From an uncultured virus (IMG/VR IMGVR_UViG_3300049489_000201) (lineage: Duplodnaviria > Heunggongvirae > Uroviricota > Caudoviricetes), in IMG/VR virus record IMGVR_UViG_3300049489_000201: a stretch of DNA of 64,000 bases; one strand, 5' to 3'. The notes beneath the pieces were generated by a model. That model saw nothing but the letters and a program-made list of their open reading frames with translations. It was not told the DNA's origin and ran no database searches. This document shows, piece after piece, positions 10,376 to 15,441 of this stretch (position 1 is its first letter; the number at the start of each line of letters is the position of its first letter). The translations under genes were made by a program, and so were the position numbers.

Positions 10376-10448
10376 TGGAGGCACTATCGGGAGTCGAACC
10401 CGAAACTATGGTTTTGCAGACCATATTCGCATACCCTGTCATAGCGCC
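10376..10448 (-). tRNA. tRNA-Cys(GCA), encoded CCA, weak D-arm
   Basis: acceptor GGCGCTA/TAGTGCC; anticodon arm ATGGT-CTGCAAA-ACCAT; TTCGA T-loop. Confidence 0.85.
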
Positions 10449-10449
10449 A

Positions 10450-10523
10450 TGGTAGGAGCACGGGGAATCGAACCCCGGAATGCTGGTTAAGAGCCAGCGG
10501 TTATGCCACTTTACTATACTCCC
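10450..10523 (-). tRNA. tRNA-Lys(CTT), encoded CCA
   Basis: GCTGG-CTCTTAA-CCAGC anticodon arm; GGTTCGATTCC. Confidence 0.9.
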
Positions 10524-10535
10524 ATGAATTTTGCG

Positions 10536-10608
10536 CTCCACCAGCAGGATTCGAACCTGCATCTTACACCTTAACAGGGTGCCGTCTTGCCAGTTAGACG
10601 ATGGGGGA
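10536..10608 (-). tRNA. tRNA-Asn(GTT), no encoded CCA
   Basis: GCACC-CTGTTAA-GGTGT; canonical D and T arms. Confidence 0.9.
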
Positions 10609-10649
10609 TTAACGGGATTGGTGTAGAGTGGTCTCATAACCAATCCCCG

Positions 10650-10722
10650 CGCGACCTACGGGAGTTGAACCCGCTCCATACACCTTGACGGGGTGATATC
10701 TTATCCGTTTGACCTAGATCGC
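10650..10722 (-). tRNA. tRNA-Asp(GTC), C at position 33
   Basis: acceptor GCGATCT/AGGTCGC; CACC-CCGTCAA-GGTG; GGTTCAACTCC. Confidence 0.85.
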
Positions 10723-10831
10723 ATGATGCCAGTTTTGCTTGCGGAAGATCTGGCAACTCCACTAGTTACAAATATACTTCAACAAGCCACCGCTCGTCGC
10801 TGCTTTCGCTCACGAACACAGTTGGGTGGAG

Positions 10832-10905
10832 TGACATGGACGGGAATCGAACCCGCGACGCCTTGATTGAAAGTCAAGGTTGCAACGACCAACGTACACC
10901 ATGCC
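10832..10905 (-). tRNA. tRNA-Glu(TTC)
   Basis: acceptor GGCATGG/CCATGTC; CTTGA-CTTTCAA-TCAAG; GGTTCGATTCC. Confidence 0.8.
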
Positions 10906-10910
10906 TTGCG

Positions 10911-13942: not shown

Positions 13943-14121
13943 TGCCAGACCGGAGTGGTTACCGGTTTAGGCTTTTCGCTTGGCGGATCAAGCCAGCGTG
14001 CGGGGCTATCGCTCTACGTATCCAGGCCGTGCCTTGGCCTAGCGTTCTGACGACACCGTTTGTTCATAGGAACGGTGCTACTCCTCTACCCGGTTTCGGT
14101 AAGACTCTGCCGGGAAGTCTG
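13943..14121 (-). ncRNA. candidate multi-hairpin/pseudoknot RNA
   Basis: AGACT/AGTCT crossed with CCCGG/CCGGG, then hairpins CACCGTT/AACGGTG, AGGCC/GGCCT, ACCGG/CCGGT. Confidence 0.45.
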
Positions 14122-14280
14122 TTAAATGGTCACCACAAGAATCGCCATGATAGCGAGCGCGATGGTTGCCTGGAAAGCAACCGCGACTGTGGCGGGCTTG
14201 CGCGGTCGGCCAACCATATACCAATTGACCGGAAGTGAGAACAGGAACCAGGCCACTAGAACCCACTGCTGCCATACCAT
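14122..14280 (-). CDS. 52-aa two-TM membrane protein
   Basis: MVWQQWVLVAWFLFSLP...; TGATG coupling. Confidence 0.6.
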   Translation of the reverse strand: MVWQQWVLVAWFLFSLPVNWYMVGRPRKPATVAVAFQATIALAIMAILVVTI

Positions 14281-14582
14281 CACTTGCCGCCCTTTCGCGC
14301 AGCACGAGCAGCCTGACCCCGACGACGCTGAGCCGTGGGCGACGACTTGCCCACCTGGTCCTCGCGCGTGTCCGTCTCGACCTTGTGCGCGTACACCGTC
14401 ACGATGCGCTTGGACGCGGGGTCCACGATCACCGCGAGCCCATCACGGATGTGCCGACGCTGGCCAGGGTAGTAGCCATTGTCGTACGAAACGTGCGGGT
14501 AGTCCGCAGCCGCAAGGACCGAGTTGACATCGAAGCCCTTCTCGTCGATCTGCTTGCGGGCGTGGGCGGAAATGGTGAACAT
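14280..14582 (-). CDS. DUF4258/RelE-colicin E5-like (BECR-fold) ribonuclease-like protein
   Basis: SAHARKQIDEKGF...GQRRHIRDGLAVIVD...RIVTVY pattern; AGGAG RBS. Confidence 0.55.
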   Translation of the reverse strand: MFTISAHARKQIDEKGFDVNSVLAAADYPHVSYDNGYYPGQRRHIRDGLAVIVDPASKRIVTVYAHKVETDTREDQVGKSSPTAQRRRGQAARAARKGGK

Positions 14583-14602
14583 GAATTCTCCTAAGTAGGT
14601 TG

Positions 14603-14757
14603 GAACAGAGGATCACGGCAAGGCTAGCATTCGGCTTAGGCACGAGTCAAGGGGGTTGTGATCATCAATCTCGTAGTCCACCCTAGAAGTGCTTTCTTGA
14701 TCCTGAGGCGATTAACTCTCGTCGGCTTAGGACTAGCCTTGCTGTCATCCTCTGTTC
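14603..14757 (-). ncRNA. long hairpin RNA/leader with symmetric internal bubble
   Basis: GAACAGAGGAT/ATCCTCTGTTC and GCAAGGCTAG/CTAGCCTTGC stems; CCTAAGCCGA on both loop strands. Confidence 0.6.
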
Positions 14758-14888
14758 TCTTGTAGTCATAGACTAGCAGACACCACTGACAGGCGTCTAG
14801 GGGTTTTCCGGGGAAATTTCGACTAATCGTAACCCTTGTAGACCTTAGCCCAGCGGGCTAAGGTCTTGGCCCGCCTCGGCGGGCTCTG

Positions 14889-15164: not shown

Positions 15165-15398
15165 TCACGAGCGCTCCGACTGAGCCTTGCCGCCGAAAAC
15201 GCCGTCGAGAATGACGCGCGTTCCCTCAGCGTTGTACCAAACGCCCTGACGCTCGCAGGCCGACTTGACCTCACGCGGGCACTCGGCGCACCAGGACTTT
15301 GCCCGCTCGATCTTCGCGGGCATTCCCGACATGCGGATCTTGTCGATCTCCACAATCGTGAGGCCGGTCGCGGCGGGGGAGCAAGGAACCTGGAACAT
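15165..15398 (-). CDS. divergent WhiB-like protein
   Basis: C...AKSWCAECP...C...GVFGG; GAAAGG RBS. Confidence 0.65.
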   Translation of the reverse strand: MFQVPCSPAATGLTIVEIDKIRMSGMPAKIERAKSWCAECPREVKSACERQGVWYNAEGTRVILDGVFGGKAQSERS

Positions 15399-15441
15399 GT
15401 CGTGCCTTTCGTTTGTTGGTAGGGCTAGTCTAGCAGAAGGG

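Follow-up and report, generated by a model that had tools for sequence, protein, structure and literature searches.

A conserved long-stem RNA leader upstream of a nuclease-fold gene in a large phage and two close relatives

The window analysed here is a 64,000-nt stretch that opens a phage record of 117,090 bases, and it contains a minus-strand gene for a nuclease-fold protein (14280-14582) with a long pair of complementary arms directly upstream. The genome has 31 tRNA genes and one tmRNA. One neighbouring gene has about 50% identity to genes from large Streptomyces phages, and the nuclease-fold gene is widespread in large actinophages, with matches in 28 Streptomyces phage records. Among 11 matching records that were fetched, nine are assigned to Stanwilliamsviridae, and these nine are all that state any family. 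Judging from these sequences, the host is presumably an actinobacterium. Two close relatives serve for comparison: L027, whose protein is 62% identical, and L028/L044 in the 115 kb phage G001, whose protein cluster is 57% identical.

The surroundings of the locus are GC-rich, with small minus-strand genes that have their own sigma-70-type promoters and with a repeated GC-rich element. A 19-nt GC-rich near-palindrome has eight matches at seven places between 12693 and 17367. All of them lie in the early region, most of them ahead of promoters; G001 has elements like it, and it is possibly an operator or a terminator. An early tRNA cluster (Cys, Lys, Asn, Asp, Glu) lies at 10376-10909 on the same minus strand as the nuclease gene. 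The cluster is also found in G001, there with Tyr, and tRNA-Asp (10649-10722) was missed by ARAGORN at its default threshold. Upstream of the cassette, an ORF at 15165-15407 (minus strand) encodes a small protein resembling WhiB, with a Pfam E of 5e-4 that does not reach the cut-off, and similar ORFs also lie upstream in L027 and L044.

The gene at 14280-14582 encodes a 100-aa DUF4258-like protein of the colicin-type BECR group with a basic C-terminal tail, a predicted RNase and likely a tRNase. The match to Pfam PF14076 (DUF4258) scores 20.3 bits against a curated cut-off of 25, and 24 of 65 aligned relatives match DUF4258 at E up to 0.01, the best at 2.4e-9. All of 65 sequences have His7 in the first helix and Thr62 in the last strand. 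Neither PHROGs nor NCBIfam added an informative family. The structure model has a pLDDT of 84, and its top structural matches are all of the BECR/RelE fold, with middling Z scores of up to 7.2. The best Foldseek matches are CdiA-CT NC101 (5i4q; E 2e-3, rmsd 2.9) and colicin E5 (3ao9; E 3e-2). In the VIA comparison 5i4q has a Z of 7.1 and RelE/ParE structures tie with it at 7.2; therefore, the BECR subgroup and the target are not fixed by the structural matches. As modelled, the protein is a BECR alpha/beta fold with a conserved His on its N-terminal helix. DUF4258 proteins have been placed among colicin-like BECR proteins that have a conserved His on the pre-alpha helix and, according to that account, mostly cut tRNA (10.64898/2026.08.28.747851). 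CdiA-CT NC101, colicin E5, DUF4258 and Ntox49, as the same source describes the group, share with the phage protein the BECR fold, the His7 position on the first helix and the Thr62 position on the last strand. RNase activity and toxicity are predicted from the model, and by analogy the target is likely to be tRNA.

Unlike the colicin-like BECR tRNases, this protein comes from a stand-alone phage gene that lacks a delivery domain and is not accompanied by a conserved immunity protein. A 53-aa hydrophobic ORF (14122-14283, minus strand) overlaps the nuclease stop codon and is present in L027. It is not beside the G001 nuclease, and it was not found in the 32 kb of G001 searched; therefore, it does not provide a conserved immunity protein. 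The specificity of NC101-type nucleases is reported to involve a G discriminator (PMC5737660). An escape of phage tRNAs from such a target received no support, since tRNA-Asn, -Asp, -Gln, -Trp and -Glu(CUC) keep the G. A second non-coding stretch follows the two-gene unit (13990-14118, minus strand; 82% over 91 nt to L027:3354-3443). It has a 36-nt block identical to L027 and two hairpins whose stems are changed and whose loops are kept. The fold of this stretch is weak (z -1.15), and it is absent from G001 and has no Rfam match.

The predicted leader of the nuclease gene follows an outer phage early-type promoter, TAGACG-18-TAGTCT (14770-14799, minus strand), with the -10 at 14770-14775, the -35 at 14794-14799 and a predicted start near 14763. 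The sequence-only reading had placed this promoter at 14770-14791; the promoter was found, but its extent is slightly wider. It scores 14.6 with a matrix trained on 16 further promoter-like sites from this phage and G001, a set taken from a regex. The training sites score 12.1-17.1, and two of 90 background tiles reach 11. The 5' arm (14733-14757, minus strand) is identified by fold, complementarity and relatives, and the 3' arm (14603-14627, minus strand) ends with 13 nt that are identical in all three homologues. Each arm is 25 nt long and the two are 92% complementary. In the minus-strand RNA they form a stem of 11 bp, a G.G mismatch, 2 bp, an A.C mismatch and 10 bp, so that 23 of 25 positions pair. 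The interior (14628-14732, minus strand) is variable, with 105 nt here, 85 nt in L027 and 59 nt in L044. A Shine-Dalgarno sequence AGGAG (14588-14592, minus strand) follows; its GGAG lies 11 nt downstream of the stem and 5 nt upstream of the ATG.

The hairpin has a minimum free energy (MFE) of -59.5 kcal/mol and a z of -4.36, and none of 200 shuffles was equally stable. The long hairpin with 11-bp and 10-bp outer stems that had been proposed from the letters is thus confirmed. Its arms are the top-scoring of six long inverted pairs in the 117 kb genome (score 19, the next 14). Another of these pairs, at genome positions 79002-79150, sits in apparent coding sequence. No terminator was called between the stem and the gene, and the 8 nt after the stem contain 1, 3 and 1 U in the three homologues. 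Therefore, without a U-tract or terminator after the stem, the RNA is expected to continue into the gene, that is, to be a leader. Terminators of high-GC hosts may be poor in U, but a stem that encloses a 105-nt loop does not belong to that kind. The predicted leader is 181 nt long here and 137-181 nt across the three homologues. In the RNA run X19, contigs cover 14308-14541 and 14749-14874 and leave the interior uncovered. The second piece is mostly upstream of the outer promoter and may be DNA. Runs X24 and X4 gave no contigs matching the locus. The comparison of runs covered eight of 24 on the list.

L027 and L044 both agree with this phage in the -10 hexamer and in the first 12 transcribed bases, and each has a 25-position stem. 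The stem begins 6 nt after the common 5' hexamer in the three homologues, and its distance to GGAG is 11, 11 and 12 nt. By the pair table 24 of 25 positions pair in L027, or 23 when its C.U and the shared G.G are both counted, and 24 of 25 pair in L044. Over 24 pairs in three homologues, 70 of 72 cells are paired; five pairs are changed on both sides and one change is to G-U. All five compensatory changes are within the inner 12 pairs, and the outer 13 positions, the G.G mismatch among them, are identical save for one base in L027. Cognate arms have energies of -40.0, -35.3 and -41.4 kcal/mol, against -16.2 to -28.1 for swapped arms. Between one and four of 500 shuffles matched the observed covariation measures, and slid controls gave 35-55% pairing; resting on three related sequences, the covariation is supportive and is not a formal probability. 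What is conserved is the geometry at the mRNA ends (the 5' end and the Shine-Dalgarno sequence), and the interior is free to vary. As judged from the aligned sequences, the long duplex has been held by selection at a constant spacing from both the predicted 5' end and the ribosome site as the interior drifted. The earlier suggestion of a selected long hairpin before an RNase-fold gene is borne out by covariation in both close relatives (2/2) and by the BECR fold of the modelled protein.

The match between the arms might also have arisen at the DNA level, as a neutral quasi-palindrome maintained by template switching or as a cruciform or invertible segment. As described in bioRxiv (10.1101/2021.04.15.439925), stems can be repaired by template switching, which can also make compensatory changes without selection, and only one G-U change was seen in the data. 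In the contigs of runs X3 and X5, a two-base change at 14690-14691 turned a short palindromic motif into its reverse complement. However, the G.G mismatch is kept in all three homologues, one or two mismatches are retained in each of them, and the stem length and Shine-Dalgarno distance are fixed. Also, no inversion joints were seen in the strain contigs, which drop rare forms. A DNA-level origin is considered very unlikely.

The expectation that homologues would have the structure held for the two close relatives, but not for more distant ones. The long stem is in none of 13 more distant homologue loci (11 of Streptomyces BK-type phages, L046 and L124), where the longest upstream helix is 8-13 bp in 190 nt upstream, counted from the match start in the four loci where the start codon was not found. 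Therefore, the nuclease family does not need the stem. A covariance model of the three sequences matches this place only in G000 and G001, and it found nothing in G002, BillNye or Faust. At least 12 further proteins close to this one (P0112-P0123) are on record. Rfam yielded no family at its gathering score, nor over the element when E was relaxed to 10, nor in the relatives when E was relaxed to 1. Four of the 11 BK-type loci (L001, L131, L132 and L138) carry a hairpin of 6-7 bp at the matching place in the leader, preceded by a similar 5' sequence, which suggests that the long element arose by growth of such a hairpin. Searches of annotated phages for DNA similar to the locus, the L044 leader and the downstream element gave chance-level or no matches. 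A DNA pattern scan of viral contigs gave 23 loci at chance level, none with the arms or the gene. The one locus from a second scan was true (L028), 15 loci from a further scan did not carry the gene, and one of 69 from the last scan was true, the G001 locus that was already known. L045 and L047-L049 have weak short protein matches and are left out of all counts; G003, which holds L049, has no match to the protein profile.

The interior contains the 10-nt motif CCTAAGCCGA. The genome has just two copies of it, at 14722-14731 and 14631-14640, both in the same sense. In the minus-strand RNA the first copy of CCUAAGCCGA lies in a place where the relatives share only the first letters CYUA, and the second is inside the spacer of an inner promoter-like site. 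Repeats of at least 10 nt occur in 17 of 5000 shuffles of the 105-nt interior and in 21 of 1115 genome tiles, so this repeat is uncommon but not extreme. The sequence-only reading had placed the two copies on opposite sides of a symmetric bubble closed by ACGAG/CTCGT. The two same-sense copies are present, but the symmetric bubble is not the predicted fold. The ACGAG/CTCGT helix has a pair probability of 0.01, and it costs 3.1 kcal/mol over the MFE when forced alone and 5.1 kcal/mol when both repeats are also kept unpaired. In the ensemble, the 5' copy pairs for the most part with a partial complement close by. The interior also has five other folds, at 1.1-3.4 kcal/mol above the MFE; therefore, no one fold is predicted for it. 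The L044 interior is predicted to form two small hairpins, which are a minor fold in this phage.

The bubble had also been taken as a selected feature, which is not supported by the relatives. CCUAAGCCGA is in neither of the two, and the longest interior repeat, 10 nt here, is 7 nt in L027 and 5 nt in L044. Those repeats are at chance level, as 336 of 3000 shuffles for L027 and 1685 of 3000 for L044 were as good. The 10-nt repeat is likely a by-product specific to this lineage. Some interior motifs are common to L027 and L044, and a candidate bulged-G-like motif, AGUA/GAA, is seen in both of them and not in this phage. Contigs of runs X3, X5 and X8 have seven changed positions (five events), all in the 81 nt between the repeats, and the arms and repeats are unchanged where covered. 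A hand estimate for this clustering of variants is about 0.04 if changes are uniform, and the strains are related. One of the changes breaks the end pair of the ACGAG/CTCGT helix. Two small hairpins downstream of the G001 nuclease (L044:2815-2915) each contain CCUAAGC, the start of CCUAAGCCGA; their fold z is -0.54 and the likeness may be chance.

A second promoter in the 3' arm, TTGACT-18-TAGCCT (14621-14650, minus strand), is present as had been noted, and its matrix score is 13.6. Both of its hexamers are unchanged in the strain variants from X3, X5 and X8 where covered. The site is credible in this lineage and would allow a cis switch in which a long mRNA is repressed and a short mRNA from the inner promoter is active. 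However, the promoter is specific to this lineage and absent from both relatives, where the best internal scores are 3.7 (L027) and 4.3 (L044). The computed cost of opening the ribosome site also points the other way, with 5.0 kcal/mol for the long RNA and 6.9 for the short RNA. Removal of the 5' arm raised the cost in all three homologues (5.0 to 8.0, 5.0 to 7.3 and 6.6 to 8.0 kcal/mol), and these differences are small. Pairing of the interior or the repeats with the Shine-Dalgarno sequence was rejected as chance level, with 127, 363 and 273 of 1000 shuffles as good. The two-promoter switch is not upheld by these results and is the least probable of the explanations considered.

The stem is tentatively read as a cis-acting double-stranded site for processing and stability, probably acted on by host RNase III, that sets the dose of the nuclease; this falls somewhat short of an even chance. 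The host polymerase would transcribe from the outer promoter through both arms into the nuclease gene. The closed stem may shield the 5' end and keep the variable interior off the ribosome site. RNase III would cut the two arms at about pairs 14-16, around the stem's midpoint, and the 59-105 nt interior would drop out, with a change in mRNA half-life or translation. Early in infection the nuclease would then attack RNA of the host, probably tRNA. A short mRNA that bypasses the stem could also come from the inner promoter in this lineage.

RNase III is described as reading a set of boxes within about 12 bp and as processing T7 early pre-mRNA at R1.1 (PMC8708148); therefore, a 25-pair stem is of the right size, and its duplex is long enough for the proximal, middle and distal boxes. 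The cleavage consensus is reported to be weak (PMC4357697). The match here is 5/8 + 5/8 for cuts after pair 14 or 16, which tie, with a host RNase III presumed, and a cut after pair 9 scores equal or better on the 5' arm. This match is not an RNase III signature, and because it is weak, the RNase III step is one that we infer. As in this phage, T7 R1.1 is described as a long intercistronic or leader stem in the early transcript of a lytic phage, of a size that fits RNase III (PMC8708148). Unlike R1.1, the arms here enclose a branched interior of 59-105 nt, the host is only presumed to be actinobacterial and the consensus match is weak. Further points count against a processing and stability site. 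The motifs shared by the L027 and L044 interiors would not be needed by a pure processing stem, the long stem is absent from the 13 distant loci, and the compensatory changes can have originated by template switching.

The leader, or the interior RNA cut out of it, could instead bind the BECR nuclease and inhibit it or feed back on it, in a terminator-free version of type III toxin-antitoxin logic. The hairpin precedes the nuclease in all three close relatives, the RNA model matches only there in the two genomes that carry it, and no protein partner is common to all. A basic tail containing RRGQ is conserved in the nuclease clade and has a net charge of +7 to +8 in the three hairpin-bearing proteins. 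A precedent is the phage AbiF RNA RCd22, which lies upstream of its toxin and is described as acting in cis and in trans (10.1101/2025.04.15.648962), and release of the interior by RNase III would be compatible with inhibition. However, there is no terminator to yield an excess of RNA, and the interior, the expected site for the toxin, is the least conserved part. All 13 distant loci lack the long stem, yet basic tails are found in L003, L131, L132 and L138 (+5 to +7). A lytic phage would presumably also have less need of an antitoxin. Inhibition or feedback by the RNA is possible but unlikely. The fuller proposal is that this is a new RNA-antitoxin family for a colicin-like tRNase, in which the mRNA would carry the inhibitor of its own product in the leader, and RNase III or the nuclease itself would cut the 25-bp stem and free a branched interior that binds the basic tail and times host tRNA destruction, with neither terminator nor tandem repeats; it too is doubtful.

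Membership in type III, which the bubble had suggested, is not supported by the leader, which is not type III by definition because it has no terminator, no tandem repeats and no Rfam match. In type III systems a Rho-independent terminator is described between the RNA and the toxin (PMC12283969). The element shares with type III systems and AbiF-RCd22 a structured non-coding stretch between a promoter and a co-transcribed RNase gene. RCd22 is reported to start 168 nt before the start codon, and this leader is about 181 nt long from its predicted start. It differs from ToxIN, CptIN, TenpIN and AbiF in having no terminator and no conserved array of repeated motifs or pseudoknots, and the protein is colicin-like BECR instead of Abi_2 or ToxN-type. 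T4 RegB is a precedent for autogenous control, as an early phage RNase of RelE/YoeB-like structure that is described as cutting its own mRNA, which is under post-transcriptional control (PMC3014915). RegB cuts GGAG in its own Shine-Dalgarno sequence, and no long leader stem is part of that description. The protein encoded at 14280-14582 has no match to the RegB family.

The RNA might also be an independent small RNA that is co-transcribed with the nuclease and acts on a host protein, for example as a polymerase decoy like Ms1 or 6S RNA. A strong early promoter is conserved, and the inner promoter in this lineage could free the gene from the RNA. 6S RNA and Ms1 are described as long hairpins with a central bubble (PMC4191392), and they share with the leader a long terminal stem with unpaired segments above it. 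In contrast to these RNAs, the leader has no second long helix, no 3' end signal and no Rfam family match, and it sits in an mRNA leader. The central bubble between two long helices of 6S RNA is lacking, as the 59 nt above the L044 stem form two short hairpins and no fold dominates here. A decoy would also act against a phage whose sigma-70-type promoters presumably need the host polymerase. This role is distinctly unlikely.

The element is a real and conserved RNA leader with a known kind of logic, known from three phages only and previously undescribed: a search of mainly open-access literature gave nothing on this element or its family. It adds an RNA motif outside Rfam that goes with a nuclease-fold gene standing by itself. 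Most of what is known about how lytic phages control the amounts of their own RNases comes from T4 RegB and T7. A stem that serves only for processing would add modestly to this; should the interior RNA inhibit the nuclease, it would be the first RNA antitoxin against a colicin-like BECR RNase in the literature searched.

Related loci have other features near the nuclease gene. In a different phage group (L046 and L123/L124), nuclease homologues follow a helicase-like gene by themselves; they lack a long leader stem, and no small partner gene is obvious. Seven BK-type phages (L002:2868-2943, L003 and L133-L137) have a 76-nt structured element between the nuclease and hydrolase genes. The L027 and L044 interiors were considered as possible copies of this downstream element and rejected, as a covariance model of six sequences gave no match at E up to 5. 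That model has no match in G000 or G001, and a loose pattern was at control level. Rfam gave no match for the 76-nt element in the phages scanned, and each of the two genomes searched has a single strong match. The outer stem of the element pairs with the Shine-Dalgarno sequence of the hydrolase gene, and the two change in step.
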